Under the pieces are notes generated by a model. That model was not told the origin of the DNA and did not search any database. It was given only the letters and a program-made list of their open reading frames with translations. Shown piece by piece: positions 4,995 through 32,429 of a stretch of 64,000 bases of DNA (its first letter is position 1; each line of letters starts with the position of its first letter). This stretch comes from Octopus vulgaris (taxonomy: Eukaryota), in the NCBI GenBank assembly GCA_951406725.2, contig OX597829.1:20584001-20648000 (forward strand), read 5' to 3'. Position numbers and translations under genes: made by a program.

Positions 4995-5041
<47 letters not shown>

Positions 5042-5062: not shown

Positions 5063-5094
<32 letters not shown>

Positions 5095-5307: not shown

Positions 5308-5356
<49 letters not shown>

Positions 5357-6233: not shown

Positions 6234-6284
<51 letters not shown>

Positions 6285-8434: not shown

Positions 8435-8451
8435 CTATTTTTTATATTAAC

Positions 8452-8887: not shown

Positions 8888-8912
8888 CTTTTCTTTTCTT
8901 TTTTTTTTGCAG
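8888..8912 (+). promoter_or_regulatory. Strong splice acceptor for the glycosyltransferase coding exon (mirror at ~30132-30156)
   Basis: cttttcttttcttttttttttgcag 52 nt upstream of ATG 8965. Confidence 0.6.
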
Positions 8913-8964
8913 TGTGATATAACATCAAAGTTTTCTGGACATATCACTGTCAAGTTACACAGGA

Positions 8965-9993
8965 ATGCCAATATCTGTGAAAATGCTTCGTCTAAAACGT
9001 TATTTATATTTATTATTTTACTTTTCTATATTTGCTTACACACTTGTGTTCATTGGGACGAAAATGCTCCAGAAAAATGAATTGAAATCTGAAATTTTAA
9101 AAAGTGAACAAAAGAGCTATTCTCAAAATCTTCAAGGTGTAATCAGCCAGTCAGTTGAAATTGCTAAAGATATTATGAAAAAACATAATTTAGTTTTATT
9201 TACTCTTATTAACAATGCTTATTTACCTTTTGTCTATAGTTGGTTGTGTAACACTATTAATATGGGTATCCATGAGCAAATTCTCTTTATTACTACAGAT
9301 GCTATATCAAAACAACAATTTGAGAAGGATTGGCCTAATGTCAAAGTTGTTGTGTTGCCCGAGACTTCACTAAATGGTAATCAAACTTATAGTAAAGTTG
9401 GTTATGTAAAACTAATGGTGAAACGTACAGAAATTTTAAATTCTTTATTGCAGAATGATATTGAAATTCTTTTATTTGAAGTTGACTGTCTTTGGGTTTC
9501 TAATCCTATTGATGAATGCAAAAAAATAGCATTGGAAAATGATGTGATAGTTACATGTATTGCTGGCAGAAAAAGATCTATTGCTGGAGGTTTCATATAT
9601 ATGAAGCCTACAAACGCTGTGAAAACTCTCTGGCAAGAACTGAATTCAAAGATGAGACGTCTTGGCAAAGAAATTGATGGAAAAGATGATAATAAACTTA
9701 TATCTAAAAGTAAAAATGACCAGGTATTCTTTACGGGACTTATTCAGAAAAGATTTGGTGGAATAAAATATGAAGTTCTTCCATGGGACAGATATATTGA
9801 TGGAAAATGGTATGAAATGAAATTAGAAGATCGTCAGAAGAAACATGTTGTTATTATTAACAATAACTGGGTAGCTGGAAATGCAAAAAAGTTAAAACGA
9901 GCCAAAAAATTTGGACATTGGTTTATAGATGACTCAATGAAATGTAAAATGGATCAAGTTGACAGAATAGTTTACCGTGGGTTGTATGTGTAA
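8965..9993 (+). CDS. Nucleotide-diphospho-sugar transferase (GT-A fold, GT77/Nucleotid_trans-like), type II membrane protein, copy A
   Basis: 342 aa intronless ORF; basic N-terminus plus hydrophobic anchor (KRYLYLLFYFSIFAYTLVFIG); N-AYLPFVYSWLCN, LLFEVD (DxD-like), AGGFIYMKPT, NDQ, xNNWV-G-KK-R-K-G-W motifs typical of the family. Confidence 0.88.
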   Translation: MPISVKMLRLKRYLYLLFYFSIFAYTLVFIGTKMLQKNELKSEILKSEQKSYSQNLQGVISQSVEIAKDIMKKHNLVLFTLINNAYLPFVYSWLCNTINMGIHEQILFITTDAISKQQFEKDWPNVKVVVLPETSLNGNQTYSKVGYVKLMVKRTEILNSLLQNDIEILLFEVDCLWVSNPIDECKKIALENDVIVTCIAGRKRSIAGGFIYMKPTNAVKTLWQELNSKMRRLGKEIDGKDDNKLISKSKNDQVFFTGLIQKRFGGIKYEVLPWDRYIDGKWYEMKLEDRQKKHVVIINNNWVAGNAKKLKRAKKFGHWFIDDSMKCKMDQVDRIVYRGLYV

Positions 9994-11004
9994 TTTAAAT
10001 CAGGGTTAAATATATTCTTTGGTTTCAACATCACATTTGTATTCATTTTTGGTTTCCTTCTAACATTTTTGGTTCTCATCAGCTGAACATTAGTACACCG
10101 GCATACCTGTACTCTCTTTTACTCTCTTTTAGAGAGTATATTTATATTTATGTAGTATATTTATATTTGAGATTTATTTAATCAGTAATTAAAAATACAT
10201 CAATATATACTCAAAACATATACAATAGGAATTTTGTTCAGAATATTAAGCAGGCATTCAGTTTCTGAAGCCATTGAAGAAGCTTCTCTGTAGTCACTCA
10301 GTAGGTACCTAATATTCTTCAAATTTAACTTAGCGTCCTAAAAGTAATGGATAAATTGATCTGAGCATCTCTACATAGTAAGTAAAGAAAGCAAACAACT
10401 AAAATACCACAGAAACAAAAGAACAAATGAGTTGCATAAACAATACATTCTTGTTTAGGCCTACAATCTTTTCAGCAGCTCTCAATAAATTACAAAAAAA
10501 AAAAAAATACAAATCACTGCATATTTCTAGCATTTCATCAATAAACCAAATTCTTAATTACACGAAAACACTAAAAATAAAATACTATATAAACAGGAAT
10601 GAGACACAGTTGCTGTGGTAAACACCAACCTTCACAATCCCTACCATTTCATGTACAACTATCTCAAGTATATATGTATATATGCACAAATGCGAAAACT
10701 CATTGACTTGCATATATATACATATGTGTGTGTTTGTGTGTGTGTGTCTCTGTGTATATGTTTGCATCAGTTTGTCGTGCTAGTCTATTTGAAACACATG
10801 TAGCTAATTAAATTGTTTACAATGCCTCATTATTCTCTGTATTTTCTCTCACTCTCACTCCCTGTATACATCTGTGTGTATACATGTGTGTGTATATGTG
10901 TGTGCATATATGTGTGTATATATATATATATACTTATCTGTATGTATGTATATGTTTATATGTATGTATGTGTATATATGTATATATGTATGTGTGTGTG
11001 TATG

Positions 11005-11037
<33 letters not shown>

Positions 11038-11104
11038 GTGTGTGTCTGTGTATGTATGTATATACATATATTTATATATATATGTGTATATATATGTATG
11101 TATA

Positions 11105-11760
11105 TAATGTCGGCGTCACTTTCTCATCATGAATGATGTCCATATTGTTCATGAAGCAGAGATCCAGAATGTTATTTACCCTAATTGGTCTGAGTACTGC
11201 TTGCTCCATGAATAAGGCATTGGTGAGGTTGAGCATGGACTCCACCTGTGCTTGCTTGCAATGAGTCAATCCTTAGAGTATGTGACATTTGGGCCATTTG
11301 ATGTTGTGTAAGTTGAAATCACCCATAAGAAATATGGTCATGTGGTGATCCAGATTCATGAGGATTTCTTTAATTCTTGTGAAGCAATCTTCAAACTTGG
11401 TTTGGAGCATCTGGTGGGCAATATGTATTGCATATGACTATATTATGTTGTCTTATGTATACAATTAGAGTGTCACATACTGAATTTGAGTATGACAGTA
11501 AGACCTGCGGTGTGAGGTCGACATGGAGGTATACAGCAACTCCACTATGACTCCTTTCCCTTCTGTCTGTTCATAGTCTGGCATATTTTGGTATGTGTAC
11601 TTCTGCATCCTCTATATCAAGGCTGAGGTGAGTTTCCATGAGTGCTATGCATAGGGCTTGATTGCATGCAGTAAGATCTCTCAGGAAAGAAATTTTGCTT
11701 TTATTGTGATGCAAAAGGCCCCAATATATAGTAAAAGTATTTGTGTGATGACTGTACAGG
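11105..11760 (-). mobile_element. Decayed LINE (CR1/L2-type) AP-endonuclease fragment; mirror ~27290-27960 (+)
   Basis: IALMETHL, R..RKG..SGVAVY, MGDFN, PIRVNNILDLCF motifs. Confidence 0.75.
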
Positions 11761-11879
11761 CGTTAGGGGAGGCCATCCCGTGTCTGTTGACTGTGGTGGA
11801 CAAGGTTCCTTGTTTGTGCTTGAAGTTGCCAGGTCAGCTGCTGCACAATCTTTTGTGCCATGTACAAAAAAGACTCTTG

Positions 11880-14295
11880 CTCAGTTGCTGGCTAGGAAAT
11901 CTTTAATTAGATATAATAATAAATTATGGGCTAGGAAGGATACTAGAGACTATTTTGATATACCTATGGGGGCACCAGATTCTGCACAGGCTACTGATTT
12001 AGTAGGTATTTTTTTTATCAGAACTTCAATTAGAAAAATTTAAGTAGGAGGGTGGTCTATATAGGGATGACCTTTTATTACTTACTAGGGATTGTACAAA
12101 TAGAAAATTAGAATTATATAAAAAGAAACTTTATAATTTCTTTAAAAGATATGGTTTAAGTATTACTATTTATAATGAGAACTATAATGTTAATTATTTA
12201 GATGTTAATTTTATTTAATAATGGGTGAAACCCAACCATTCCATAAAATTAACGAAAATCTGAAATATATTCATTCTTATAGTAATCATCCACCTTCTGT
12301 TAAAGAATCGTTGATAAATAATGTAGGTAAAAGAATATCATTACTTGCTTATGATTTAGAGATTTTTAATAAACATGCACCTTGTTATAATAAAGCCCTG
12401 CATGATGCAGGATATAATAATAATATTAAATTTTTTAATACTTGTAAACATAATTATAATTTGAAGGAGTATAATATAAATGATTTTTATAATGATAAAC
12501 CTAATTATCTGAATTATGATAAATTTTATTTAGGTATCTATCATCCTAATAATAATAGGTATTTTGATGATGTAAATAATACATTTAATATTGGAATGAA
12601 AACTAAAAATAAGATAAAATTTAATTCAATTAACGAAGATAATAAATTTAATATTACAAAAAATATAATAATAATAATATAAAAATAAAATATGGTTAAT
12701 CGTTCCGTTTGGGGTTCAGTTTAAAGTAAATCTTATTAAAAGGATTTTAAATATAATTGAAATATTCATTATGGATAATAAAAAATATAACATTTTTTCT
12801 ACTAATAATTTTGGAGTTGGGTATTCAACTACTACTAATGTTGGTAATATTTCTTCATTAAATACATTTAAATTAAATAAATTCTACAAAGATATATTAA
12901 ACATTGATTCCAATAATAATAATAAAGACCAAGATATAATTTATTGTACATGTAGGGATAAAACTACATGTAAATTTAATAATTGTAATTTAGATAATGT
13001 AGTCTATAAGTGTATGGTAACTTTAATAGATGATAAGAATTTGAATTATCATAATTTAAACATATTTATATAGGGTCCACTTTGAATAAAATTAAATCTA
13101 GAGTAGCACAACATATGTATTCTTTTAGGAATAAAAATCTAATAAATTCAACAGGTCTCAGTAAATATATTTGAGACCTTAGATCTAGATCTATTAAATA
13201 TGAATTAACTTGGGAGATTATTTGTAGGGCTAAATCATATTCTATATGGAGTAATTATTGTTCATTGTGTAATAATGAATTAAAAGAAATATTATTTAAT
13301 AACAACTATGTGTTAGTAAACTCATTAGAGGAACGTAAAATTAAATGTAAACATGAATCAAATTACCTATATAATGGGTTTAGCTAATAAATGATTATAT
13401 AAATTGATTAAGATATATTAATTATAGTAATATATATTAATTTAAATATGATATATATTTTACTTATTTATTATTTGAACTTTAAATTTATAGTAAAAAG
13501 TCATTTAAAATTAAATGCTAACATAAATTTATTTATCTATATGATACGTTTAGCTTATTTTTCCGTATGTATAAAACCTTATCTCTTTTTATGTTATTTA
13601 TTGTAGATATAATTTAGTAGTATTAGTGTATAATTTACTATATTATTATGTGTTATATTAATATATTTGAATAATTTTAAACTTAGATATTTCCTAATAC
13701 ATAAATGATTATTTATAATTTTATTAAGACCTATTAATTATAGTAATATAAATTAATTTAATATTATATGTATATTTTATGTAATAATTATTTAGTAATT
13801 AATTTATAGTAAATAGTCATTTATAGTTCTTTTGTTATTCTATTTTTCTTTCATTCATGAAGCTTAAATTAATTTTTCATTAATAAATATTTTTCATCAT
13901 TTTCATTGATAATATTATTATATTTTTTACACGTCTTCACGAGTTTAATTTCTTATAAACGCTAAGTAATGTTTTTTACGTAACAATATTATTTAACTTT
14001 TGAATTGTATTAAGTTTGATTATTATTATGATTATTATTGTAGCTAAAATATTAATTTATATATAGTTACGATATGTATATCTATTTATTTATTATGTTT
14101 TATGATTATTATTAATTTTATAATGTGATTTAACGAATTATATAATTTAATTCGAGAATTAGTTTTGTAAGACAATATATTATTTAAAAGTTAGGTGGTC
14201 TATTTATTACATAATATTACATTTAAGTAAATTAGTTTAATATTAATTGATATTTTGATCAACTGTATAATTGAATAAAATAATAAATCTATATA
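11880..14295 (+). mobile_element. Decayed AT-rich Penelope-like element (Naiad-type RT + GIY-YIG)
   Basis: ARKSLIRYNNKLW, FDIPMGAPDSAQ, GGLYRDD, YSNHPP, CTCR-C-C..VVYKC, TGLSKYI, CSLCNNE; frameshifted. Confidence 0.85.
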
Positions 14296-14299
14296 TACT

Positions 14300-14313
14300 A
14301 CATCATCATCATT

Positions 14314-14349
<36 letters not shown>

Positions 14350-17300
14350 GTTTAGGTCCGCTTTCCATGCTAGCATAGGTTGGACGGTTCAACTGGGGTC
14401 TGGGAAGCCCGAAGGCTGCACCAGGCCAGTCAAATCTGGCAGTGTTTCTACAGCTAGATGCCCTTCCTAATACCAACCACTCCGTGAGTGTAGTGGGCGC
14501 TTTTTACGTGCCACCGACACATGTGCCAGACAAGGCTGGCGAACGGCCACGCTCGGATGGTGCTTTTTATGTGCCACCGGCACGGAGGTCAGGTGAGGCT
14601 GGCAATGGCCACGATTGGATCGTGTTTGTTACATGCCACGGGCACAGAGGCCAGTCGATACGGCGTTGGCTACGGCCACGTTCGGATGGTTCTCTTACAT
14701 GCCACCGGCACTGGTATCACAACTACAAATTCCATTGATGTTGATCGATTTCGATTTTCACTTGCCTCAACAGGTCTTCACAAGTAGAGTTTTGTGTCCC
14801 AAGAAGGAAGGTATGCACAGGTGGACTGACTACGTCCTAGGTAGAGGCCACGGGTTATGGTCTCACTTGTCCTGCCCGGTCTTCTCACGCACAGCCTACT
14901 TCCAAAGGTCGGTCTCTGGTCATTTCCTCGGTGAGACTTAAAGTTCGAAGGTCGTGCTTCACCACCTTGTCCCAGGTTTTCCTGGGTCTACCACTTCCAC
15001 AGGTTCCCTCAACCGCTAGGGTGTGGCACTTTTTCACACAACTATCTTCATCCAATTTTACCACGTGTCCATACCAGCGTAGAGGTCTCTCTTGCACACC
15101 ATGTCTGATGCTTCTTCGGTCCAACTTTTCTCTCAAGGCACTTACACTGTGTCGGCTATGAACACTGACATTACACATCCATTGGAACATACTGGCTTCA
15201 TTTCTTGCAAGCTTATGCATATCCTCAGCAGTCACAGCCCATGTTTCACTGCCATGTAGCATGGCTGTTCGTACACATGCGTCATACAGTCTGCCTTTTA
15301 CTCTGAGAGAGAGGCCTTTTGTTACCAGCAGAGGTAAGAGCTCTCTGAACTTTGCCCAGGCTATTCTTACTCTAGCAATTACACTTTCAGCACAGCCACC
15401 CCTGCTACTGACTTGATCACCTAGGTAATGGAAACTATCAACTATTTCTAGTTTTTCTCCCTGGAATGTGGCGGAGGATGATCTCTGCGCATTTTCAGTG
15501 TTTATTGCACCAGAGCATCTGCCATATACAAAACGTATCTTCCCAGTTAGCCTTCCTTTGACATTGCTGCACCTCTTATGTGTCCATAGCTTACACTTGG
15601 TGCATCTTATAGAGTTCCTACCTACGCCTTTTCTACAGATCGAGCAGGGCCATCTACCTGAAGGCGTTTGTGATTTGTCTACCTTCCTATTTATTAGGAC
15701 TTTGGTTTTAGCTAGGTTGACTCTAAGGCATGTAGTGACGTCATTTTCCAGTGTGCGCACACGAAACGTCATTCTTGAGTGTGCGTGTGCGGGGCTGGAA
15801 CCTTCTGGAAAGGCCTGAGGAAGTTCCCTCATGCACATGCGCTAGAGACTGGGGAAGAAAATTCCTTCGCGTTCCTTGTTAGCGTCGTTGACTTGAGAAA
15901 CGGCTATTGAAGAGAAAGGACGTGTGAAACGTGTGATCAGCTATTCTCCTGTACTAGACGCTTGGGATTTGACCTGGTCTGTTGCTGCTGAATTTGTTGT
16001 AAGAATCTTACAAATGTTAAAATTCAGCCTTGTTTCCAGAACCTACCAGTCAGGAACAAAACGCAACTTTAAAAATATATATGATTCTTTATTCTCTTAT
16101 TTACAAATGAAGCACGTTGGTATATTGGTATCCACTTGGTTAAATATAGCAAGGCTGAATTTTAACATTTGTAAGATTCTTACAACAAATTCAGCAGCAA
16201 CAGAGCAGGTCAAATCCCAAGCGTCAGGAACAGGAGAATGGCTGATCACACGTTTCACACGTCCTTTCTCTTCAATAGCCGTTTCTCAAGTCAACGACGC
16301 TAACAAGGAACGCGAAAGAATTTTCTTCCCCAGTCTCTAGCGCATGTGCATGAGGGAACTTCCTCAGGCCTTTCCAGAAGGTTCCAGCTCCGCACACGCA
16401 CACTGAAGGATTACGTTCTGCACACGCACACTGAGGAATTACGTACCGCACACGCACACTGAAGAATGACGTTGCCTGTGCGCACACTGGAAAATAACGT
16501 CACTACAGGCCCTTCGATTCTAATCCTTACTTCCACTCCTGAAACTTCTCCTCCAGTTCTGATAGTGACTCAGTAATTAGAGCAAGGTCATCAGCATAGA
16601 GGAGCTCCCAGGCGCATTCTGTCTTGAATTCCTCTGTTATTGCCTGGAGGACTATGATAAATAGGAGGTGGCTGAGGACTGAGCCTTGGTGAACCCCTAC
16701 CTCTACCCGGAATTCTTCACTGTACTTGTTGCCAACCCTCACCTTATTAACAGCGTCCCTGTACATGGCTCGCACAGCTCTCACTAACCATTCATCTATC
16801 CCTAGTTTCCTCATTGACCACCAGATAAGGGATCGGGGCACCCTGTCAAAGGCTTTCTCCAAGTCAACGAAAGCCAGGTACAGAGTTTTATCTTTGGCTA
16901 GGTATTTCTCCTACAGCTGTCTCACCAGAAATATGGCATTGGTAGTGCTTTTCCTTGGCATGAAACCGAACTGCATCTCGTCCAGGTTGACTCTCTCCCT
17001 AATCAGTTGGGCTATGACCCTTTCCGTAACCTTCGTTACCTGATCTAACAGCTTGATACCTCTAATTACTTGTATGTAGGGCGTCACCTTTACCTTTGTA
17101 GCAGTTGACTATTATGCTACTACACCAGTCACTGGGTATGACTCCTTCGTGTATCACCTGGTTAACTATACGGGTGACTAGGCTATAGCCGACACTGCCA
17201 GATATTTTGAGCATCTCTGCAGTAATTCCTGATGGGCCTGGGGTTTTCCCTGTCTTCATGCTTCTAATTGCCTTAACTACCAAGGAACTGTCAACTTGGA

Positions 17301-18249
17301 TAGCTGGTCCCTCTGTTGGGTCGACATTCGGCAGACTCTCTTTATCCCATTCATTTTCTTTATTCAGCAACCTTTCATAGTGGCATCTCCAAACCTCTCT
17401 CTTTGCATCCTCATTTAGTGCAAGTGAACCATCATCCATGCGAACACATTTCTCTCCTACCACATCACGATTCTCTCTTACACACTGTCTTGCAGCACGA
17501 AATACTTCAAATCTTTGGTCCTCACGACGCAGAACATTGGCAAATTTTTTCTTATCTGCTTCCCCTCTGGCTAAATAACCCTGTCTCCTAGCTTCTCTTT
17601 TCGCAGTCTGATATAAAACCCTGCTACCGCCATTCTTCCAGTCCTTCCAAGCCTGTCTTTTGTCTCTAATCTACGACATTGCTCCACCACCACGTTACCC
17701 TGGGACTTTGCTCCATCCACAGATCTGGTCAGTGGCTCTCAGCAGATTGTCCCGTAGAAACCTCCAGTTGTCTTCCACATTATGTGAAGCTATATCCCCT
17801 TCTATTTCGTCGAATGCTTCGAGTAGGACGTCTCTAAATCTCCGTCCATTTGCAAGATCTTTAAGTTTCTAGACCCTTCTCCTCCGAGCTGGTCTTCTTC
17901 TGGGCAGCCATTTGGCCCTGATCCTGAAATCGCTAACTACTAATCTATATTGAAGAGTACATTCTTCGCCTGGGAAGGTTTTGGCATTTATAAGCAGCCC
18001 TCTTTCCCTCTTTCTGGCGAGGATGTAGTCGATCTGGCTAGAGTGTCTGCCAGAACGGTAGGTGACTAGGTGAGAGGTGGGTTTCCTGAAGTTGGTATTG
18101 CAAATCATAAGGTCATTTGCATCGCAGAACTCCAGCAGCCTGGTTCCCTCCTCATTGCGAGAACCAAAACCGTAGTCTCCATGTATGCCGTGGAAGCCCC
18201 CGACATGCCGTCCAACATGTCCACTGAAGTCACCTGCCACAAAGAGAAG
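14300..18249 (-). mobile_element. RTE-clade LINE (EN-RT-C-terminus, 3' UTR, (GAT)n tail), broken, interrupted at 15731-16507
   Basis: GDFSGHVG, QIDYIL, EKAFDRVPR, GVHQGSVLS, LLYADDL, WPCSIC..CTKC..H..C, LHGSETW, RGRPRKTW-like motifs; (cat)n at ~14300-14348. Confidence 0.9.
15731..16507. mobile_element. Foldback insertion made of two inverted LTR outer ends (TGTAG...CTACA) with a 4-bp TSD GGC(C/A)
   Basis: 15731-16032 is the reverse complement of ~16150-16507; the empty site gaagggccttagag is seen at ~22296-22309. Confidence 0.8.
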
Positions 18250-18250
18250 A

Positions 18251-20210
18251 TAACCTTCACCTTCTACGCTACACCTTAGACAGGGTTGGGAAATTAGCCG
18301 GCAAGGGAGGGGCATTGGTCCATTTAGACAAAAGTAAAGCGTTCGATAGGGTAGACCATCAGTACCTGGGGGCGGTCCTCGAAGCGGCTGGGCTGGGCCC
18401 TGGCTTTTGCGGGTGGATCTCCGCTATGTACAGCGGCATAAAATCCACAGTCCAGATAAACGGCTACCTAACGGAGCCGTTTTCGATCACGCGTTCTGTT
18501 CGTCAAGGTTGTCCTTTGTCTCCACTTCTGTTCGTTTTGGCTATTGAGCCATTACTGCGGAGGTTGGAGAAGTTAGGAGGCAACCCAAATGAAATCGCAT
18601 GCGGTAGGTCTGTTTCCGCCTATGCAGATGACGTCACCCTCATCGTGTCCGACGAAGCACAACTACCTCGTATAGAAGGTACTCTCCGAAGATACGAAGC
18701 GGTGGCAGGTGCAAAAGTTAACAAGGACAAGTCCATCGGTTTGCGTTTCGGCACCTGGAGGAACAAGCCGATATCGTCCAGTGTCGTCGGACATTGGACA
18801 GATGATCCTGTTAAGTTGCTCGGAGTTTGTTTGCTCCGGACTCACAGGCGGAGAAGAATTGGAGCGAGGCAGTGAACAAGGTGGAGGCTATAGTACAGAA
18901 GTGGTCCGGAAGGCCTCTGTCCTTGAAGGGCAGGGCGGAGGTAGTGCAGGTGTTTGTAGCATCTGTAATCACCTACCGCCTGTCCGTGGTGCCTTGCCCC
19001 GATTCGTGGATGAACAAGTTGGAGCGAATCATCTTCCGCTTTTTGTGGAAGGGAGGAAATCCACTTGTGAAGAGCTCCGTTTGCTGCCAGGAACCGTTAA
19101 AAGGTGGACTGGGGATGCCCTGGCTGATGATGCGCAGACATGCGTTGAGGCTGAGACATCTCTGGTGCCACTTGAAGAGTGATAGGGTGTGAAGTCCGCT
19201 GGCGGAGGAGCTCTTGCCGCGACCGGCCTCCTTGGAGGGATTTAAACCCGGTCTCATTAAAAGACGAAACCTGACTTTATGGCAGAAGGAGTGCCATCAG
19301 GCACTCTGGCTGATCCACAAGGCGGGCAAGGCCAGCAGTGGGAATACCACCTCGGTGTTCTATAGAGGGCTGGTAGAGGAAAAGAACGATGACGTCCTAG
19401 GAAGGGCTCTGGGGCTCGATGAGAACCAACTCGCCAACCTGTTTAAAAAAACTTTCAGGTCGGGGTATTTGGATAACTTCCCTGACCTGGCAGTGTTATA
19501 GGAACGCTTTACCTGTTCGAGATAAGTTATCCAGACACGGAGTACCAGTGTCACCGACGTGTCCAAGATGCGGGGTAGACAAGGAAACTGTCCAGCACGC
19601 TATTGTGCAATGTCGGGAGCTATCTAGCTTGATGAGTTACGTCAAACACGTGCTGTCGCATTTGGGGCGAGTACAGCTGTCAGCTGAATCTATGATAAAG
19701 ATGATTCCGCCAGCTGGACTCACAGAGGAAGGTAAAGCATGTTTTTACTGTACGGTTGCAATATTGAAAGAGTGCGTCTGGAGAACGAGGATGGAAGGTG
19801 CGGTGAAAGGGTCTTTCATCTCAGGCCCCGGTTTGCTGACCTACTTCAGATACCATCTGAAGAGCAAGATGGGGCTGGAGAGGAGGACCCTGCCACCGAG
19901 AGTATTCGAGAAACAACGGAAGGATGTGATGAGAAAGGTGGGTGTTAGTAACCCAGCTTAATCATTGAGGAAAGGAAAAGTTCGTTGCAGGACCTTACAG
20001 GTGCGACCTATAACGTTTTGTTCGTGTGTTTCTATGACTTAGTTTCAGTTTACATCAAAGTTCTAATTTTTTTCAAACGATATATAAAATACATATTATG
20101 TAAGTTAATTTTTAATATTTATACAATGCGAACTCATGTAACATCTTTGTCTTTTGTTTGTCCTGTATTGTCTCATTTTATGTAAGATCACCATGATCAT
20201 AATAAAGATA
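18251..20210 (+). mobile_element. 5'-truncated Tx1/L1-clade LINE (RT, C-terminal Zn finger, 3' UTR), frameshifted
   Basis: [38 protein letters not shown]...ETVQHAIVQC; aataaa at ~20201. Confidence 0.88.
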
Positions 20211-20759
20211 TTCTACTGATTCTCATTGCTTCGGATGATAAAACTCGGGTTTCAGAAATGAGCAGCTAACCTATTTTGACTTTAACCTCATCCATTACTG
20301 TTTATGCGTAGATCTGTAACACTAACGCCTTCCGCTCTCTATTATTTATCTCTCTATCTTGTCCCTCTCTATTATTTATCTCTCTGTCTTGTAAACAGGA
20401 TGCCGCTAGCTTTCTATTTGTCTTAGACGATGCATTTTCTATATTCCTCCTTTATTTCAGGGTTGTCCTTTTCTCCCAAATTCCCTTAAAAATTTCGCCT
20501 TTCAGCTCTTGGCACACGCTTTTCGACATTTGCTGTTTCGCGGTAGTCCCGCCCCTCCACCAAAACTGGAAGTCAGTACCTCTCTACAAAAACCGGTCAT
20601 ACCTCCCTCCACCAAAACCGGAAGTTAGTACCTCAGTCTTACTTGTGCATCCCCTCCCGCGGACACTCACCCACAACCCTATTGTAGGACTTATTCGGTC
20701 ATATAGCGCAAAAAAACTGTGTAGTGTATGCAGGTTAGTCTGGTGTTTCTAGTGTTTCT

Positions 20760-22697
20760 TTATGAAATCTGCCAATTGCTGTCCCTCATCCCAGGGTCTC
20801 GCAGGCCCACACCTCCCACACCCTCAGAGTTTGCACATTGAAAGGTAGGTCTGGTGAGATTATCGAGCTGCTTGAACGGAGACGTTTGGATTTGTGCTGC
20901 ATCCAAGAAGTAAGGTGGAGAGGAGGTTCCGCTAGGTTCCTCACCGGCAAAGAACACAGGTACAAGATTTTCTGGGCAGGGAACACTGACGGGGTCGGGG
21001 GCATGGGTATACTTCTTGCAGAGAAATGGGTTGATAAGGTAAACGAGGTAGTCAGAGTATGTGACAGAATACTTAAGATTAGATTAGTGCTTCATCATAG
21101 GTCAGCTACCATCAACTTGGCATCTGCCCCTCAACCGGGGCTACCTGAAGGACAGAAAGACCGATTCTATGACACCCTATTACAGACTACCTCGTTGACA
21201 AATGACAGAGACCTTCTCTTTGTGGCAGGGGACTTCAATGGACATGTTGGACGGCATGTCGGGGGCTTCCACGGCATACATGGAGACTACGGTTTTGGTT
21301 CTCGCAATGAGGAGGGAAGACAGTATGTGAGAGAGAACCGTGATGTGGTAAGAGAGAAATGTGTTCACATAGATGATGGTTCACTTGCACTAAATGAGGA
21401 TGCAAAGAGAGAGGTTTGGAGATGCCACTATGAAAGGTTGCTGAATAAAGAAAATAAATGGGATAAAGAGAGTCTGCCGAATGTCGACCCAACAGAGGGA
21501 CCAGCTATCCAAGTTGACAGTTCCTTGGTAGTTAAGGCAATTAGAAGCATGAAGACAGGGAAAACCCCAGGCCCATCAGGAATTACTGCAGAGATGCTCA
21601 AAATATCTGGCAGTGTCGGCTATAGCCTAGTCACTCGTATAGTTAACCAGGTGATACACGAAGGAGTCATACCCAATGACTGGTGTAGTAGCATAATAGT
21701 CAACTGCTACAAAGGTAAAGGTGACGCCCTACATACAAGTAATTACAGAGGTATCAAGCTGTTAGATCAGGTAACGAAAGTTACGGAAAGGGTCATAGCC
21801 CAACTGATTAGGGAGAGAGTCAACCTGGACGAGATGCAGTTCGTTTTCATGCCAGGGAAAAGCACCACCAATGTCATATTTCTGGTGAGACAGCTGCAGG
21901 AGAAATACCTAGCCAAAGATAAAACTCTGTACCTGGCTTTCGTTGACTTGGAGAAAGCCTTTGACAGGGTGCCCCGATCCCTTATCTGGTGGTCAATGAG
22001 GAAACTAGGGATAGATGAATGGTTAGTGAGAGCTGTGCGAGCCATGTACAGGGACGCTGTTAATAAGGTGAGGGTTGGCAACAAGTACAGTGAAGAATTC
22101 CGGGTAGGGGTAGGGGTTCACCAAGGCTCAGTCCTCAGCCTCCTCCTATTTATCATAGTCCTCCAGGCAATAACGGAGGAATTCAAGACAGAATGCCCCT
22201 GGGAGCTCCTCTATGCTGATGACCTTGGTCTAATTGCTCAGTCACTATCAGAACTGGAGGAGAAGTTTCAGGTGTGGAAGTAAGGATTAGAATCGAAGGG
22301 CCTTAGAGTCAACCTTGGTAAAACTGAAGTCCTAATAAGTAGGAAGGTAGACAAATCACAAACGCCTTCAGGAAGATGGCCCTGCTCGATCTGTAGAAAA
22401 GGCGTAGTAGGAACTCTAGAAGATGCACCAAATGTAAGCTATGGACACATAAGAGGTGCAGCAATGTCAAGGAAGGCTAACTGGGAAGATACCTTTTGTA
22501 TGTGGCAGATGCTCTGGTGCAATAAACACTGAAAATGCGCAGAGACCATCTTCCGCAACATTCCAGGGAGAAAAACTAGAAATAGTTGATAGTTTCCGTT
22601 ACCTAGGTGATCAAGTCAGTAGCAGGGGTGGGTGTGCTGAAAGTGTAACTGCTAGAGTAAGAATAGCCTGGGCAAAGTTCAGAGATCTCTTACCCCT
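20760..22697 (+). mobile_element. RTE LINE 5' part: EN fused in frame to RT by an internal deletion at ~21318; premature stop at 22281
   Basis: ORF 20838-22283 has CIQEVRW, GDFNGHVG, DLEKAFDRV, YADD; the deleted block is present in the left arm (~17490-18150). Confidence 0.88.
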
Positions 22698-23529
22698 GCG
22701 ACGGCAGAGAAAGGCGTCGTTGAGATGAAGGCGTCGATGGTGGAAACGTCCTGCGTTGCTGGTGTATGTTAGCGTCGTCATTATTGCGGAAGATAAGAGA
22801 GGTTCCATTTATGCCAATTGGAATTGCTGGTTGTATAGAATTTATAATTTCAAAAACCGTGGGAAAATGTCTACGTTAGTATACCTAATGCACTTGAGAG
22901 TGAAAGCTCAGGGAATGGTAGTTGGTGCTCTACCAATTGGTTCAGACTCGGTAGAAACTAGATTTTAATTAAGTGTTCTATGGTCTATGACCAGAACTCG
23001 GGGTCACCACTGTAAAGGGAACTGGTTGATTCTTTACACTTTTTGGGTGCAACTTGGGTGCAACACAATTTCCTCTCTTTTTGTTTCCAGAAACTACCAG
23101 TCAGGAACAAAACGCAACTTTAAAAATATATATGATTCTTTATTCTCTTATTTACAAATGAAGCACGTTGGTATATTGGTATCCACTTGGTTAAATATAG
23201 CAAGGCTGAATTTTAACATTTGTAAGATTCTTACAACAAATTCAGCAGCAACAGAGCAGGTCAAATCCCAAGCGTCAGGAACAGGAGAATGGCTGATCAC
23301 ACGTTTCACACGTCCTTTCTCTTCAATAGCCGTTTCTCAAGTCAACGACGCTAACAAGGAACGCGAAGGAATTTTCTTCCCCAGTCTCTAGCGCATGTGC
23401 ATGAGGGAACTTCCTCAGGCCTTTCCAGAAGGTTCCAGCCCGCACACGCACACTGAAGAATTACGTTCCGCACACGCACACTCAAGAATGACGTTGCGTG
23501 TGCGCACACTGGAAAATGACGTCACTACA
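22698..23529 (-). mobile_element. Gypsy-type LTR retrotransposon 5' end: ~519-bp LTR (23529-23011), PBS, leader, truncated near the gag start
   Basis: Minus strand TGTAGTG...CCCTTTACA then G-TGGTGACCCCGAG (PBS, ~23009-22997); ends in ...PFSAVA, like a Gypsy gag N-terminus. Confidence 0.75.
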
Positions 23530-24915
23530 GGCCTTAGAGTCAACCTAGCTAAAACCAAAGTCCTAATAAGTAGGAAGGTAGACAAATCACAAACGCCTTC
23601 AGGTAGATGGCCCTGCTCGATCTGTAGAAAAGGCGTAGGTAGGAACTCTATAAGATGCACCAAGTGTAAGCTATGGACACATAAGAGGTGCAGCAATGTC
23701 AAAGGAAGGCTAACTGGGAAGATACGTTTTGTATATGGCAGATGCTCTGGTGCAATAAACACTGAAAATGCGCGGAGACCATCCTCCGCCACATTCCAGG
23801 GAGAAAAACTAGAAATAGTTGATAGTTTCCGTTACCTAGGTGATCAAGTCAGTAGCAGGGGTGGGTGTGCTGAAAGTGTAATTGCTAGAGTAAGAATAGC
23901 CTGGGCAAAGTTCAGAGATCTCTTACCTCTGCTGATAACAAAAGGCATCTCGCTCAGAGTAAAAGGCAGACTGTATGACGCATGTGTACGAACAGCAATG
24001 CTACATGGCAGTGAAACATGGGCCGTGACTGCTGAGGATATGCATAAGCTTGCAAGAAATGAAGCCAGTATGTTCCAATGGATGTGGAATGTCTTTGTTC
24101 ATAGCCGACAGAGTGTAAGTGCCTTGAGAGAAAAGTTGGACCTAAGAAGCTACAGACATGGTGTGCAAGAGAGACCTCTACGCTGGTATGGACACATGGT
24201 AAAATTGGATGAAGATAGTTGTGTGAAAAAGTGCCACACCCTAGCGGTTGAGGGAACCTGTGGAAGTGGTAGACCCAGGAAAACCTGGGACGAGGTGGTG
24301 AAGCACGACCTTCGAACTTTAAGTCTCACCGAGGTAATGACCGGAGACCGACCTTTGGAAGTAGGCTGTGCGTGAGAAGACCCGGCAGGACAAGTGAGGC
24401 CATAACCCGTGGCCTCTATCTAGGACATAGTCAGTCCACCTATACATACCTTCCTTCTTGGGACACAAAACTCTACTTGTGAAGACCTGTTGGGGCAAGT
24501 GAAAATCGAAATCGATCAACATCAATGGAATTTGTAGTTGTGATACCAGTGCCGGTGGCATGTAAGAGAACCATCCGAACGTGGCCGTAGCCAGCGCCGT
24601 ATCGACTGGCCTCTGTGCCCGTGCCATGTAACAAACACGATCCAATCGTGGCCATTGCCAGCCTCACCTGACCTCTGTGCCAGTGGCACATAAAAAGCAC
24701 CATCCGAGCGTGGCCGTTCGCCATCCTCGTCTGGCACATGTGTCGGTGGCACGTAAAAAGCGCCCACTACACTCACGGAGTGGTTGGTATTAGGAAGGGC
24801 ATCCAGCTGTAGAAACACTGCCAGATTTTACTGGCCTGGTGCAGCCTTCGGGCTTCCCAGACCCCAGTTGAACCGTCCAACCTATGCTAGCATGGAAAGC
24901 GGACCTAAACGATGG

Positions 24916-24953
<38 letters not shown>
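23530..24953 (+). mobile_element. RTE LINE 3' part with 3' UTR and (GAT)n tail
   Basis: Mirror of 14300-15730; ORF 23395-24375 homology begins at LRVNLAKTK. Confidence 0.9.
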
Positions 24954-24954
24954 T

Positions 24955-27180
24955 AGTATATATAGATTTATTATTTTATTCAATTATATAGTTGACCAAA
25001 ATATCAATTAATATTAAACTAATTTACTTAAATGTAATATTATGTAATAAATAGACCACCTAACTTTTAAATAATATATTGTCTTACAAAACTAATTCTC
25101 GAATTAAATTATATAATTCGTTAAATCACATTATAAAATTAATAATAATCATAAAACATAATAAATAAATAGATATACATATCGTAACTAATAATTATCA
25201 ATAAATTATATATAAATTAATATTTTAGCTACAATAATAATCATAATAATAATCAAACTTAATACAATTTAAAAGTTAAATAATATTGTTAAATAAAAAA
25301 CATTACTTAGCGTTTATAAGAAATTAAACTCGTGAAGACGTGTAAAAAATATAATAATATTATCAATGAAAATGATGAAAAATATTTATTAATGAAAAAG
25401 ACGAAAAATATTTAAGCTTCATGAATGAAAGAAAAATAGAATAACAAAAGTAGTATAAATGACTATTTACTATAAATTAATTACCAAATAATTATTACAT
25501 AAAATATACATATAATATTAAATTAATTTATATTACTATAATTAATAGGTCTTAATAAAATTATATATAATCATTTATGTATTAGGAAATATCTAAGTTT
25601 AAAATTATTCAAATATATTAATATAATACATAATAATATAGTAAATTATACACTAATACTACTAAATTATATCTACAATAAATAACATAAAAAGAAATAA
25701 GGTTTTATACATACGGAAAAATAAGCTAAACGTATCATATAGATAAATAAATTTATGTTAGCATTTAATTTTAAATGACTTTTTACTATAAATTTAAAGT
25801 TCAAATAATAAATAAGTAAAATATATATATCATATTTAAATTAATATATATTACTATAATTAATATATCTTAATCAATTTATATAATCATTTATTAGCTA
25901 AACCTATTATATAGGTAATTTAATTGATGTTTACATTTAATTTTACGTTCCTCTAATGAGTTTACTAACACATAGTTGTTATTAAATAATATTTCTTTTA
26001 ATTCATTATTACACAATGAACAATAATTACTCCATATAGAATATGATTTAGCCCTACAAATAATCTCCCAAGTTAATTCATATTTAATAGATCTAGATCT
26101 AAGGTCCCAAATATATTTACTGAGACCTGTTGAATTTATTAGCTTTTTATTCCTAAAAGAATACATTTGTAGAATTTATTTAATTTAAATGTATTAAATG
26201 AAGAAATATTACCAACATTAGTAGTAGTTGAATACCCAACTCCAAAATTATTAGTAGAAAAAATGTTATATTTTTTATTATCCCTAATGAATATTTCAAT
26301 TATATTTAAAATCCCTTTAATAAGATTTACTTTAAACTGAACCCCAAAAGGAACGATTAACCATATTTTATTTTTATATTATTATTATTATATTTTTTGT
26401 AATATTAAATTTATTATCTTCATTAATTGAATTAAATTTTATCTTATTTTTATTTTTCATTCCAATATTAAATGTATTATTTACATCATCAAAATACCTA
26501 TTATTATTAGGATGATAGATACCTAAATAAAATTTATCATAATTCAGATAATTAGGTTTATCATTATAAAAATCATTTATATTATACTCCTTCAAATTAT
26601 AATTATGTTTACAAGTATTAAAGAATTTAATATTATTATTATATCCTGCATCATGCAGGGCTTTATTATAACAAGGTGCATGTTTATTAAAAATCTCTAA
26701 ATCATAAGCAAGTAATGATATTCTTTTACCTACATTATTTATCAACGATTCTTTAACAGAAGGTGGATGATTACTATAAGAATGAATATATTTCAGATTT
26801 TCGTTAATTTTATGGAATGGTTGGGTTTCACAACATTATTAAATAAAATTAACATCTAAATAATTAACATTATAGTTCTCATTATAAATAGTAATACTTA
26901 AACCATATCTTTTAAAGAAATTATAAAGTTTCTTTTTATATAATTCTAATTTTCTATTTGTACAATCCCTAGTAAGTAATAAAAGGTCATCTCTATATAG
27001 ACCACCCTCCTACTTAAATTTTTCTAATTGAAGTTCTGATAAAAAAAATACCTACTAAATCAGTAGCCTGTGCAGAATCTGGTGCCCCCATAGGTATATC
27101 AAAATAGTCTCTAGTATCCTTCCTAGCCCATAATTTATTATTATATCTAATTAACGATTTCCTAGCCAGCAACTGAGCAA
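24955..27180 (-). mobile_element. Mirror copy of the decayed Naiad-type Penelope-like element, with a ~230-bp internal deletion
   Basis: ORFs 27014-27277, 26374-26745 and 25894-26166 match the left-arm pieces. Confidence 0.85.
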
Positions 27181-28054
27181 GAGTCTTTTTTGTACATGGC
27201 ACAAAAGATTGTGCAGCAGCTGACCTGGCAACTTCAAGCACAAACAAGGAACCTTGTCCACCACAGTCAACAGACACGGGATGGCCTCCCCTAACGCCTG
27301 TACAGTCATCACACGAATACTTTTACTATATATTGGGGGCCTTTTGCATCACAATAAAAGCAAAATTTCTTTCCTGAGAGATCTTACTGCATGCAATCAA
27401 GCCCTATGCATAGCACTCATGGAAACTCACCTCAGCCTTGATATAGAGGATGCAGAAGTACACATACCAAAATATGCCAGACTATGAACAGACAGAAGGG
27501 AAAGGAGTCATAGTGGAGTTGCTGTATACCTCCATGTCGACCTCACACCACAGGTCTTACTGTCATACTCAAATTCAGTATGTGACACTCTAATTGTATA
27601 CATAAGACAACATAATATAGTCATATGCAATACATATTGCCCACCAGATGCTCCAAACCACATAGTCAAGTTTGAAGATTGCTTCACAAGAATTAAAGAA
27701 ATCCTCATGAATCTGGATCACCACATGACCATATTTCTTATGGGTGATTTCAACTTACACAACGTCAAATGGCCCAAAGGTCACATACTCTAAGGATTGA
27801 CTCATTGCAAGCAAGCACAGGTGGAGTCCATGCTCAACCTCACCAATGCCCTATTCATGGAGCAAGCAGTACTCAGACCAATTAGGGTAAATAACATTCT
27901 GGATCTCTGCTTCATGAACAATATGGACATCATTCATGATGAGAAAGTGACGCCGACATTATATACATATATACATATATATACACACATATACATATAT
28001 ATATACACACATATACATATATATATAAATATATGTATATACATACATACACAA

Positions 28055-28089
<35 letters not shown>

Positions 28090-29049
28090 CATACACACAG
28101 ACACACACAAACAAATATATGCACATACATATACACACACACGTATACACACAGATGTATACAGGGAGTGAGAGTGAGAGAAAATACAGAGAATAATGAG
28201 GCATTGTAAACAATTTAATTAGCTACATGTGTTTCAAATAGACTAGCACGACAAACTGATGCAAACATATACACAGAGACACACACACACAAACACACAC
28301 ATATGTATATATATGCAAGTCAATGAGTTTTCGCATTTGTGCATATATACATATATACTTGAGATAGTTGTACATGAAATGGTAGGGATTGTGAAGGTTG
28401 GTGTTTACCACAGCAACTGTGTCTCATTCCTGTTTTTATAGTCTTTTATTTTTAGTGTTTTCGTGTAATTAAGAATTTGGTTTATTGATGAAATGCTAGA
28501 AATATGCAGTGATTTGTATTTTTTTTTTTTTGTAATTTATTGAGAGCTGCTGAAAAGATTGTAGGCCTAAACAAGAATGTATTGTTTATGCAACTCATTT
28601 GTTCTTTTGTTTCTGTAGTAATGCAATATCCATGAGTATTTTAGTTGTTTGCTTTCTTTACTTACTATGTAGAGATGCTCAGATCAATTTATCCATTACT
28701 TTTAGGACGCTAAGTTAAATTTGAAGAATATTAGGTACCTACTGAGTGACTACAGAGAAGCTTCTTCAATGGCTTCAGAAACTGAATGCCTGCTTAATAT
28801 TCTGAACAAAATTCCTATTGTATATGTTTTGAGTATATATTGATGTATTTTTAATTACTGATTAAATAAATCTCAAATATAAATATACTACATAAATATA
28901 AATATACTCTCTAAAAGAGAGTAAAAGAGAGTACAGGTATGCCGGTGTACTAATGTTCAGCTGATGAGAACCAAAAATGTTAGAAGGAAACCAAAAATGA
29001 ATACAAATGTGATGTTGAAACCAAAGAATATATTTAACCCTGATTTAAA

Positions 29050-30079
29050 TTACACATACAACCCACGGTTAACTACTCTGTCAACTTGATCCATTTTACA
29101 TTTCATTGAGTCATCTATAAACCAATGTCCAAATTTTTTGGCTCGTTTTAACTTTTTTGCATTTCCAACTACCCAGTTATTGTGAATAATAACAACATGT
29201 TTCTTCTGACGATTTTCTAATTTCATTTCATACCATTTTCCATCAATATATCTGTCAAATGGAAGAACTTCATATTTTATTCCACCAAATCGTTTATTAA
29301 TAAGTTCCATCAAGTATACCTGGTCATTTTCACTTTCAGATACAAGTTTATTATCATCTTTTCCTTCAATTTCTTTGCCAAGACGTCTCATCTTTGAATT
29401 CAGTTCTTGCAAGAGAGTTTTCACAGCTTTTGTAGGCTTCATATATATGAAATTTCCAGCAGCAGTATTTTTTCTGCCAGCAATACTTGTAACTATCATA
29501 TCATTTTTCAATGCTATTTTTTTGCATTCATCAAGAGGATTAGAAACCCAAAGACAGTCAACTTCAAATAAGAGCAATTCAACATCATTCTGCAATAAAG
29601 AATTTAAAATTTCCTCACGTTGCACCATTATTTTTACATAACCAACTGTACTATAAATTTGATCACCATTTAGTGAAGTAATGGGCAACACAACAACTTT
29701 GACATTAGGCCAATCCTTCTCAAATTGTTGTTTTGATATAGCATCTGTAGTAATAAAGAGAATTTGCTCATGGATACCCATATTAACAGTGTTACACAAC
29801 CAACTATAGACAAAAGGTAAATAAGCATTGTTAATAAAAGTAAATAAAACTAAATCATGTTTTTTCATGATATCTTTAGCAATTCCAACTGACTGGCTGA
29901 TTACACCTTGAAGATTTTGAGAATAGTTCTTTTGTTCACTTTTTAAAATTTGTGATTTCAATTCATTTTTCTGGAGCATTTTCATCCCAATGAACACAAG
30001 TGTGCAAGCAAATATAGAAAAGAAAAATAATAAACCATAAATAACGTTTTAGACGAAGCATTTTCACAGATATTGGTAT
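29050..30079 (-). CDS. GT77/Nucleotid_trans-like glycosyltransferase copy B: catalytic domain open (ATG 29985/29979 to 29050), anchor region disrupted (possible pseudogene or soluble form)
   Basis: About 87% aa identity to copy A by hand; first ATG reads ATA (30079-30077); +1 frameshift (A to GG) at 30035-30036; ACG to ATG creates a new start. Confidence 0.8.
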
Positions 30080-32390
30080 TCCTGTGTAACTTGACAGTGA
30101 TATGTCCAGAAAACTTTGATGTTATATCACACTGCAAAAAAAAAAAGAAAAGAAAAGATAATATATAATATATATGTATATAAAGACAATAACAATAAAA
30201 TGAAGAAGGTGCATGGCTCAGTAGTTAGGGCATCAGGTTCGCAATTATGAGGTAGTGAGTTCGATTCCTGGACTGGGTCGTGTGTTGTACTCTTAAGCAA
30301 GACACTTTATTTCATGTTGCTCCAGTTCACTCAACTGCGGAAATGAGTTGCAATATCACTGGTACCAAGCTGTATCAGCCTTTGCCTTTCCCTTGGATAA
30401 CATCAGTTAATATAAAAAATAGTTTCAGTCATTAGACTTTAGCCATGTTGGAACACCACTTTGAATTTTTTTGTTGAATGAATCAACCCCAGTACTTCTT
30501 TTTAAGCCTGGTGGTTATTTTATTAGACTCTTTTGCCGAACTGCTAAGCTGTTGTCAAGTAGTGAGGGGTGGGAGAGGGAAAAGACAGACAGAAAGATAC
30601 ACACACACACACATGCATCCACTGACAAGGCTTTGGTTGGTCTGAGGTTATAGTAGAAAATGCTTGCCCAAGGTACCATGTAGTGGGACAACCTGGAACC
30701 ATGTGGTTGAGGAGCAAGCTTCTTACCACACAGTCCCTTTCTTTTATATTCACTTATCACTTATGATTTTTTAGGCATTTACCTTTGATACTGCTGCATT
30801 TCAGTTCACTTCATCCAGGTTAAAAAAAGTTATATAAGAAAGTCAATCTTTGGATTACTATCACATCTAAGGGCCCTAAGACAGTTATGTAGCAGAATTT
30901 TATATGCTAAAAAAAAGATTTTAATAAAAGATGTATCATTCTCCATTCTTTATTCTGTATTTCTTATACACCCTGAATTTTATAAGAATCTTTTGAAGCA
31001 AATTCAGGATTTACCAATTCAAAGAAGCCCAAAAACAATTGTTTATTCTAAACGATTCCAAATGTTTCCTAATATTTGATGTGGCTAGCCAAGTCTAGAT
31101 TTTTAACAGTGTTAGTAAAGTATCTACCTGGATTTAAAATCCTTATTCCTTTGTGGTACACACACATATTGATGGGTTACATGGTTTGACTGAAACTGGT
31201 AAGCTGGAGAGCTGCATCAGATTCCAGTCTAATTTAAGAAGAGCTGGATGCCCTTCCTAATGCCAACCACCCCAAGAGGGCAATGGGTGCTTTTATGTGC
31301 CACCAGCATGAGTACCATTTACATGGCACCAGTAATGACTATAATTTCACAGGTGTGTGTGTGCGTGCATATGTGTGATGTATGTATGTATAGGTAATGA
31401 CACCCTTCAGTCATGAGTGACCATGGGATTACACCTAGAAGTTCCCCTCTGAGGCACAAGTCCAGGCAAGGTTGTTTATGAAAGACCAGCCATGCATACC
31501 AGCCTCCCCTCTTCATGCCACCAATGTTATCCAAGGCAAAGGCCAACAGCTTGGTACCAGTGACATCGCAACTCATTTCTACAGCTGAGTGAACTGGAGC
31601 AACATGAAATAAAGTGTCTTGCTCAAGAACACAACACGCAGCCCAGTCCAGGAATCAAACTCATTACCTCATGATTGTGAGCCTGACACTCTAACCACTG
31701 AGCATTACACCTTATCTGTTTAGTTTAGTTTGGGCAAAAGCCTCATTATGCCTTCTTAAAAGCTCCTGTGCTTCTTAATGTCAGCTGCCACATGTTAATT
31801 CCATCTCCCAGGGTAATCTAATAGTATGGGCATACATTTGGAACTCCTTTCTGCTTAGGATAAATACTACAATAATAACATGCAGATTGAAATTCAAAGG
31901 CTTTGTTAATTAAGCTTGATTAATAAAGTTTAATAAAACCTATTAATTACCATCCCCTGTTATTATTGTTGTGTGTGTGTGTGTGTGTGTGCTATGCAAT
32001 TGGACTGAGCATAAAAACAGAGCAATGTGCAGAGGAATCATACACACACATACATCCCATATATAGCATCATTCAAAAGCTAAAATGATGCAAAGCACAT
32101 TGTAACCAGTGATATATAACAATATCCAATGATCTGGTTGGTCAAATTATTTATATATATATATATCATCATTTAACGTCTACCTTCCATGCTGGCATGG
32201 GTGGGACGGTTTGACAAGAGCCAGCCAGGCAGAAGCCTGCACCAGACTTCTGTGACTGTTTTGGCAGGATTTTTACAGATGGATACCTTTCATAACACCA
32301 ACCACTAAGAGAGGAGTCATTGGAGGAGGAGGACAGATAGAAGTGTCTTGCTGCAGAGGAATACAAGGTTACCCATCCAGAGAAAGAGAA

Positions 32391-32429
<39 letters not shown>

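Follow-up and report, generated by a model that had tools for sequence, protein, structure and literature searches.

A stretch of 64,000 nucleotides from Octopus vulgaris (assembly GCA_951406725.2, contig OX597829.1, positions 20,584,001 to 20,648,000 of the forward strand; hereafter, the window) carries two inverted copies of a gene for a glycosyltransferase of the Nucleotid_trans (PF03407) family, here termed copy A and copy B, whose coding sequences (CDS) have diverged almost purely by amino-acid replacement. We consider it probable that A- and B-type members of an Octopus PF03407 (GT77-like) gene cluster came to differ at predicted substrate-facing residues because positive selection favoured different donor or acceptor sugars. 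Published work is cited below by accession or DOI.

Excess of amino-acid replacements between copy A and copy B

Alignment of the 311 in-frame codons shared by copy A and copy B revealed 55 nucleotide differences and 41 amino-acid differences, with only four codons altered synonymously (S42, I70, L169 and R263) and eight codons carrying two or three changes. These figures bear out a preliminary description of the sequence, which had counted about 40 replacements, about four silent changes (the same four) and several multiply changed codons, and which had expected a ratio of non-synonymous to synonymous divergence (dN/dS) above 1. By the Nei-Gojobori method, dN was 0.070 and dS 0.028 (Fisher p = 0.037), and under GY94 with five codon-frequency models, omega reached 3.44, 2.56, 3.03, 2.23 and 2.09 (p = 0.003, 0.032, 0.009, 0.070 and 0.102, respectively, in likelihood-ratio tests). 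When restricted to the catalytic domain (codons 76–342), omega was 3.1–5.3 and significant under all five models (p = 0.0008–0.035).

The CDS forms a local divergence peak between low-divergence flanks, with 59 differences in 1029 positions (5.7%) against 57 in 6384 (0.89%) in the near flanks, the latter comprising 28/2992 upstream, 3/866 in 9994–10860 and 26/2526 in 11110–13860. The earlier claim of near-identical flanks holds close to the genes, including the roughly 400 bp 3′ of the stop codon said to be free of substitutions (0/407). The inner, retrotransposon-derived parts of the arms differ by 2.3–2.4%, and there are three indels of 188–225 bp between the arms, arm B lacking stretches of 192, 188 and 225 bp that arm A contains. 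At flank divergence, around 6.6 replacement codons would be expected, compared to the 41 observed; dN greatly exceeds the divergence of the flanks, whereas for silent sites the excess over the flanks is not significant (p = 0.09–0.15).

Adjacent differences amounted to 17 of the 59 in the CDS and to 2 of the 57 in the near flanks and, given this clustering, codons were also counted as single events. A neutral simulation of this kind, with the mutation spectrum of the flanks and 0–15% dinucleotide events, predicted about 10 silent-only codons among 45 changed ones, whereas four were seen (P(≤4) = 0.013–0.017), and this result was robust to dinucleotide mutations. GC-biased conversion was rejected, as the B-derived changes included 14 weak-to-strong and 14 strong-to-weak substitutions. 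Polarisation of the A/B differences assigned 25 to copy B and 11 to copy A and left 4 unresolved (p = 0.029).

Location of the replacements in the predicted fold

A structure model based on a 63-row alignment (pLDDT 91.6) predicted a GT-A fold, with 6mw8, a GT8-related alpha-galactosyltransferase, as the best match (Z 14.7, root-mean-square deviation (rmsd) 3.6, 211 aligned residues), followed by UGGT, glycogenin and GT6 enzymes (retaining GT8/GT24/GT6 proteins; Z 12.5–14.7, rmsd 3.5–4.3). GT-A elements, as defined in PMC7185993, were placed by secondary structure and motif order: HV1 (131–144), alpha-C, ExD (172–174), the G-loop AGGF (207–210), HV2, NDQ (251–253) and the C-His position (299). 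The metal motif of DxD type that follows beta4 is present as an ExD variant, E172-V173-D174, unchanged in both copies; among homologue rows, the first position is E in 193/201 and the last D in 199/202.

Predicted substrate-facing elements make up 91 of the 267 catalytic-domain residues (34%) and hold 24 of the 36 A/B differences located in this domain (67%), with concentrations at the G-loop, at the NDQ/xED helix and at other such elements, in line with the earlier description of clustered changes, which had pointed to the G-loop and NDQ/xED regions. By comparison, 24 of the 72 differences between copy A and its Argonauta relative fall in these elements (Fisher p = 0.002 against A/B). Enrichment at p < 0.01 was found in 24 of 26 Octopus pairs, which are non-independent (1.7–2.5-fold), and in none of 94 control pairs of other homologues (maximum 1.5-fold), so that no parallel diversification was seen among the latter. 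A region-free test on all 57 variable sites also detected clustering (p = 0.011 and 0.005), and site 257 takes five states among Octopus paralogues. The ExD motif, R154, NDQ and K309 are untouched between A and B, and the catalytic motifs are intact in every full-domain copy. Among distant relatives, Asn is the commonest alternative at position 209 (23/198 rows), and His occurs at position 299 in 24/177 rows.

Gene structure and membrane anchor

Both proteins match PF03407 above the curated cut-off (79.5 and 78.4 bits versus 22; profile positions 2–207 of 208). The two genes, one in each arm of the inverted duplication, are convergent; in both, a likely splice acceptor precedes a CDS without interruptions. 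Copy A has a hydrophobic membrane anchor at about residues 13–32 (mean hydropathy 1.84 in the 19-residue window 14–32), which forms an N-terminal helix in the model, and its conserved start is likely the second ATG, at 8983 (M7). Loss of the first ATG as a lesion of copy B was rejected: where copy A has this codon, copy B reads ATA, the O. bimaculoides model P0005 has Ile there, and M7 is Met in P0003, P0005, P0006 and P0007, which makes the ATA of copy B likely ancestral. No GT6 family appeared among the Pfam matches of either protein at E ≤ 1, the ESM Atlas yielded PF03407 clusters only, and a metagenome scan for relatives gave 115 pattern matches, none of which was confirmed.

A and B/C types in two Octopus species

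Clusters at 90% identity contained three further O. vulgaris models (P0063, P0066 and P0068) and four O. sinensis models (P0064, P0065, P0067 and P0004), which, together with copies A (P0001) and B (P0002), gives five models in O. vulgaris and four in O. sinensis. Our searches returned one Argonauta relative, the partial O. bimaculoides model P0005 and the fragment P0211, which fits the missing middle of P0005 and was the sole match in a search for shorter fragments; a search with P0068 retrieved no further Octopus clusters. The preliminary view of twins that diverged inside one young palindrome is therefore not upheld, since both the A type and the B/C type occur in the two species.

Over residues 100–342, which lie inside the divergence peak, O. 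vulgaris A differs from O. sinensis P0065 at 5/243 positions and O. vulgaris B from O. sinensis P0067 at 9/243, whereas A and B differ at 34/243, so that cross-species relatives are closer than paralogues. Against the outgroup positions of P0005 and P0211, copy A shows 32 differences. A tree of 11 protein rows, from which the partial P0063, P0005 and P0211 were left out, recovered a B/C clade with 100/100 support and a stem of 0.082, with both species inside it, and grouped O. vulgaris A with O. sinensis P0065 (91/87). At the protein level, the A type is nearer the outgroups and the B/C clade holds most of the derived changes. As both types occur in both species, the split between A and B/C, as judged from these sequences, likely predates the separation of O. 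vulgaris and O. sinensis, dated to about 2.5 million years ago (bioRxiv 10.1101/2023.05.16.540928).

A block of replacements in HV1/alpha-C (N139D, T141I, K144T/R, L150I, K153Q, T155E and I166V; 9355–9465 / 29578–29688) is common to O. vulgaris B and P0066 and missing from all four O. sinensis models; it is possibly a second, more recent replacement burst. Five of the nine models lack the canonical anchor, namely P0002 (copy B), P0066, P0068, P0064 and P0004. If real and not due to indel errors, the anchor loss means that soluble forms could exist; AgtA, for instance, is a cytosolic GT77 enzyme (PMC2793385). Gene conversion between the copies is plausible, and a recombination test on 35 informative protein sites came out negative (69/595 site pairs incompatible, with no relation to distance, p = 0.47; PHI-like p = 0.97).

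Evidence against selection and the possibility of relaxed duplicates

A number of observations weigh against positive selection. The whole-CDS likelihood-ratio test was below p = 0.05 in three of the five GY94 models only, with p = 0.07 and 0.10 under F3x4 and F61; dS depends on no more than 4–6 silent changes; and the A/B pair was picked for its extreme look, so that its p values, taken in isolation, are optimistic. The excess of B-derived over A-derived changes becomes borderline if only the nearest outgroup is used (22 versus 10, p = 0.050). The boundaries of the structural elements were set after the data had been seen, on the basis of secondary structure and motif order, the 36 A/B differences showed no significant clustering in a region-free test (p = 0.10–0.11), and neither the protein nor a 63-sequence profile matched a PDB sequence at E ≤ 10, i.e., no solved relative is detectable by sequence. 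Furthermore, an extra base in the anchor segment of copy B, as assembled, shifts its frame, and the canonical anchor together with a full domain is found in only three of the nine O. vulgaris and O. sinensis models (P0001, P0065 and P0067): P0063 ends at residue 176, and five models begin late or in another frame.

Part of this would be accommodated by an explanation without adaptation, in which B/C copies are relaxed or dead duplicates, one arm acquired by conversion a CDS tract that was older and had diverged neutrally, and silent changes are few by chance. In addition to the frameshift of copy B, the truncated or anchor-less models (P0063, P0004, P0066, P0068 and P0064) and the two non-significant codon models, changes at the conserved sites G209, W223 and N299 would fit such decay, and false signals of selection are a known risk under gene conversion (PMC3924837). 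Nevertheless, neutrality predicts the larger number of silent-only codons given above and an even spread of replacements, with 34% in the elements instead of 67%; catalytic motifs have been kept in all full-domain copies, and the B-type P0067 of O. sinensis is full length and anchored. A third paralogue acting as CDS donor had been put forward as a refutation of selection; such paralogues do exist, but a donor cannot remove the replacement excess. Altogether, we regard non-adaptive divergence as improbable. The broken models fit birth-and-death turnover, indel errors in the T-rich anchor tract, or both.

Comparison with independent DNA runs

Two DNA runs from different studies, X1 and X2, were compared with positions 8670–10670 of the window. 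Each run contained the B-type block at 9350–9500 as a single contig with 15 differences, contigs identical to A (0 differences) and a third type matching P0068, i.e., three sequence types per run. Among the variants listed (40 of 54), 36 lay inside the CDS, and 33 of these 36 carried the letter of copy B, which indicates that the A/B differences are not assembly noise. The extra base of copy B was not listed in X1 or X2, whose contigs drop rare variants; one X2 contig crosses the site, with the ATA present and no gap, and contigs of this type likewise drop variants. In two further runs, presumed to be RNA, the CDS was not covered (three records outside it in X13, none in X19), a result that carries no weight for or against expression.

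These data bear on two further explanations. Base-calling or polishing errors between near-identical copies could be suspected because the T-rich anchor tract is where several of the gene models are broken. However, copy B letters recur in both runs, whole B blocks and A segments are found as contigs, and O. sinensis models carry these residues as well; leaving the extra base apart, sequence error is largely refuted for the substitutions and is extremely improbable as the origin of the pattern.

Alternatively, the assembler might have joined two alleles of a single locus to form the arms; A and B would then be trans-species alleles maintained by balancing selection, as known for primate ABO, and not paralogues in a real palindrome. 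In favour of this, the first base of arm A directly follows a scaffold gap whereas arm B extends into other sequence, the junction of the arms lies inside retrotransposon repeats, and the near-flank divergence is close to the heterozygosity of 1.22% reported for O. vulgaris (bioRxiv 10.1101/2023.05.16.540928). By contrast, in each of the two species a single contig has annotations of both A and B/C types (5 and 4 models), and three types per run require at least two loci, provided that each run represents one animal. We therefore think it unlikely that misjoined alleles account for the arms; such alleles would, moreover, only relabel the selection, as the replacement excess stays.

Comparison with known systems

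Copy A and copy B share the PF03407 domain and the GT-A fold with GT77 enzymes such as Arabidopsis RGXT1-3 (UDP-Xyl:L-Fuc alpha-1,3-xylosyltransferases) and Dictyostelium AgtA (UDP-Gal:fucoside alpha-1,3-galactosyltransferase), and the type II anchor of copy A is likewise found among enzymes of this family; NCBI names Octopus relatives RGXT-like, which is an automatic name only. Unlike RGXT and AgtA, the Octopus genes belong to an animal (molluscan/annelid) clade that has ExD instead of DxD and Asn at the putative C-His position, and they are multi-copy and fast-evolving. Literature searches turned up no enzyme activity for the molluscan/annelid PF03407 clade.

With ABO (GT6), the proteins share a retaining-type GT-A fold (GTB: Z 12.5, rmsd 3.6, 191 aligned residues) and variation at the xGG motif of the G-loop, and A- and B-specific ABO genes are non-allelic copies in several vertebrates (PMC5377540). 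The likeness is one of fold only, as the sequence families differ, and the equivalence of position 209 to ABO 268 is by motif order and not by residue-level alignment. Moreover, about 40 replacements separate the octopus copies, compared with four in ABO. With these qualifications, the ABO-like logic of specificity diversification proposed in the preliminary description is supported.

High CDS divergence between low-divergence flanks, with paralogue types common to sister species, has also been described for divergence peaks under conversion (human red/green opsins, Drosophila CG18281/CG17637 and the Teshima-Innan model; PMC2588116, PMC3924837). The octopus peak differs from these in being almost purely non-synonymous (omega > 1), and, with dS not significantly above the flanks, conversion is not required to explain it.

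Proposed mechanism and function

Duplication produced the two inverted copies in the window and a multi-copy cluster in two Octopus species, as opposed to the one Argonauta relative that the searches returned. At the protein level, the A type has stayed ancestral-like while the B/C clade evolved fast, and the two likely separated before the species did. Replacements outnumber silent changes and are concentrated in HV1/alpha-C, the G-loop, the HV2/xED helix and the C-His position, for which positive selection on sugar specificity is the proposed driver. The products are predicted to be Golgi type II, metal-dependent, retaining transferases, in agreement with the retaining, Mn2+-dependent transfer by GT77 enzymes (PMC2793385). 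The likeness of the flanks would follow from an age of the arms close to that suggested by dS, from homogenisation by conversion that selection rejects inside the CDS, or from both; anchor-less and truncated copies would be products of the death phase in birth-and-death turnover.

RGXT and Dictyostelium AgtA, both of GT77, transfer to fucose in alpha-1,3 linkage (PMC2793385, PMC8724618), and by analogy, capping of L-fucose in this linkage is a tentative candidate activity for the octopus enzymes, for which we put the chances at somewhat below even. Branched fucoses are recurrent in molluscs (PMC8699351), and the squid ink glycan contains GalNAc-alpha1,3-Fuc (PMC5923393); that the ancestral A type might be the GalNAc transferase for this branch is a more doubtful suggestion, also made by analogy. 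B/C types would then have moved to another donor and acceptor, and G209N would make the donor pocket narrower, in the manner of G268A in ABO, where AGG or LGG at residues 266–268 confers GalNAc transfer and G268A favours Gal (PMC5377540). The argument can be turned against our reading, however, as the AAN motif is inactive in the ABO code table (PMC5377540) and G209 is invariant in the 58 nearest homologues, and G209N could thus inactivate the enzyme.

In its widest form, the proposal would be a blood-group-like system independent of ABO: a GT77-family fucose-capping cluster whose A, B and C types transfer different sugars via a G-loop switch parallel to ABO G268A, with types shared by O. vulgaris and O. 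sinensis, varying in copy number or integrity among individuals, and making surface or secreted glycans polymorphic under selection related to pathogens or gametes. We consider this extension rather unlikely as a whole.

Layout of the window

The window is AT-rich animal DNA with many microsatellites and retrotransposons, in which a self-BLAST search detected the inverted duplication as two arms of about 12 kb with a 3.8-kb spacer between them. As arm A starts at the N gap and arm B, unlike arm A, runs on into other sequence beyond the repeat, the outer edge of the inverted repeat is no biological boundary. Features are compiled in Table 1.

Table 1. Features of the two arms and of the PF03407 glycosyltransferase genes (window coordinates)
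Feature	Position	Strand	Remarks
Scaffold gap, 100 N	5481..5580	.	Arm A starts at the first base 3′ of the gap
Arm A, ~11.9 kb	5581..17491	+	Self-BLAST, global alignment
Putative upstream exon segment	5813..5929	+	Coding exon in one O. sinensis model (P0064); mirror 32734-32850; tblastn
Polypyrimidine tract + CAG	8890..8912	+	Likely splice acceptor of the exon with the entire CDS, from sequence; mirror ends 30132 on -
Copy A CDS	8965..9993	+	342 amino acids, type II membrane PF03407 glycosyltransferase
HV1 loop + alpha-C helix, codons 131-156	9355..9432	+	7 A/B replacements around near-invariant Y147, R154; mirror 29611-29688
ExD metal-binding motif E172-V173-D174	9478..9486	+	Mirror 29557-29565
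beta5-beta6/G-loop, codons 196-210	9550..9594	+	C198S, R204N, S205T, I206A, G209N; G209 codon 9589-9591, mirror 29452-29454
HV2 loop + NDQ (xED-equivalent) helix, codons 237-261	9673..9747	+	9 A/B replacements; mirror 29296-29370
Codon 299, putative C-His position	9859..9861	+	Asn in A, His in B; placed by motif order; mirror 29182-29184
3′ flank	9994..10400	+	Arms identical
Spacer	17492..21316	.	LINE (long interspersed nuclear element) reverse-transcriptase fragments (RVT_1, zf-RVT)
Arm B	21317..33082	-	Self-BLAST, global alignment
Copy B catalytic open reading frame	29050..29985	-	311 amino acids, PF03407; no in-frame anchor as assembled
Copy B anchor-coding segment	29986..30079	-	ATA at first start, ATG at 30061, extra base near 30035

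A segment of about 480 bp is direct, not inverted, between the arms (16030–16511 versus 23081–23533) and lies beside a 133-bp inverted repeat; it is a small inversion within one arm that took place after the duplication. At about 4600–5480, abutting the N gap, translations of opposite-strand open reading frames (ORFs) carry the same low-complexity stretch, which suggests a short inverted duplication and may be an assembly foldback. Further repeats comprise an inverted pair of 1 kb (94.6%) within 53613–55797, a foldback with a 351-bp perfect arm at 48147–49225, a 440-bp inverted pair flanking a LINE fragment (47684–48126/52640–53077) and a direct pair of 1.1 kb at 56799–58993.

On the minus strand, an uninterrupted 651-residue LINE reverse-transcriptase ORF (RVT_1) spans 2197–4152, its 5′ end entering a microsatellite. 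A 612-residue ORF at 41375–43213 (minus strand) has no Pfam match at E ≤ 0.001; it contains putative reverse-transcriptase-like and GIY-YIG-like motifs of the kind known from Penelope-like elements, and AT-rich fragments resembling this region occur at 12221–13073, inside the arms, and at 38256–38810. A Pif1 helicase 2B-domain fragment at 61476–61997 (minus strand) is probably a Helitron remnant.

Significance

The evolutionary pattern, i.e., selected duplicates with a CDS divergence peak, is already known in kind. Among the literature matches listed, supplements apart, no description of this cluster was found; in the available part of the cuttlefish genome paper (PMC13218726), the one glycosyltransferase family mentioned is a different one, and literature searches turned up no enzyme for molluscan branched fucoses of the GalNAc-alpha1,3-Fuc type. 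There is good support for regarding the cluster as a candidate case of adaptive diversification within an animal glycosyltransferase family that is as yet uncharacterised and whose GT77-like members have so far carried automatic names only; the cluster supplies candidate enzymes for the branched fucoses of molluscan glycans. As the proteins are near-identical and differ at defined active-site positions, they constitute a natural mutagenesis series in which determinants of donor and acceptor choice are directly testable. If the types make different glycans, an ABO-like specificity switch would have arisen a second time, independently, and the cluster would offer a way of approaching how octopus distinguishes self from non-self or interacts with microbes through recognition.

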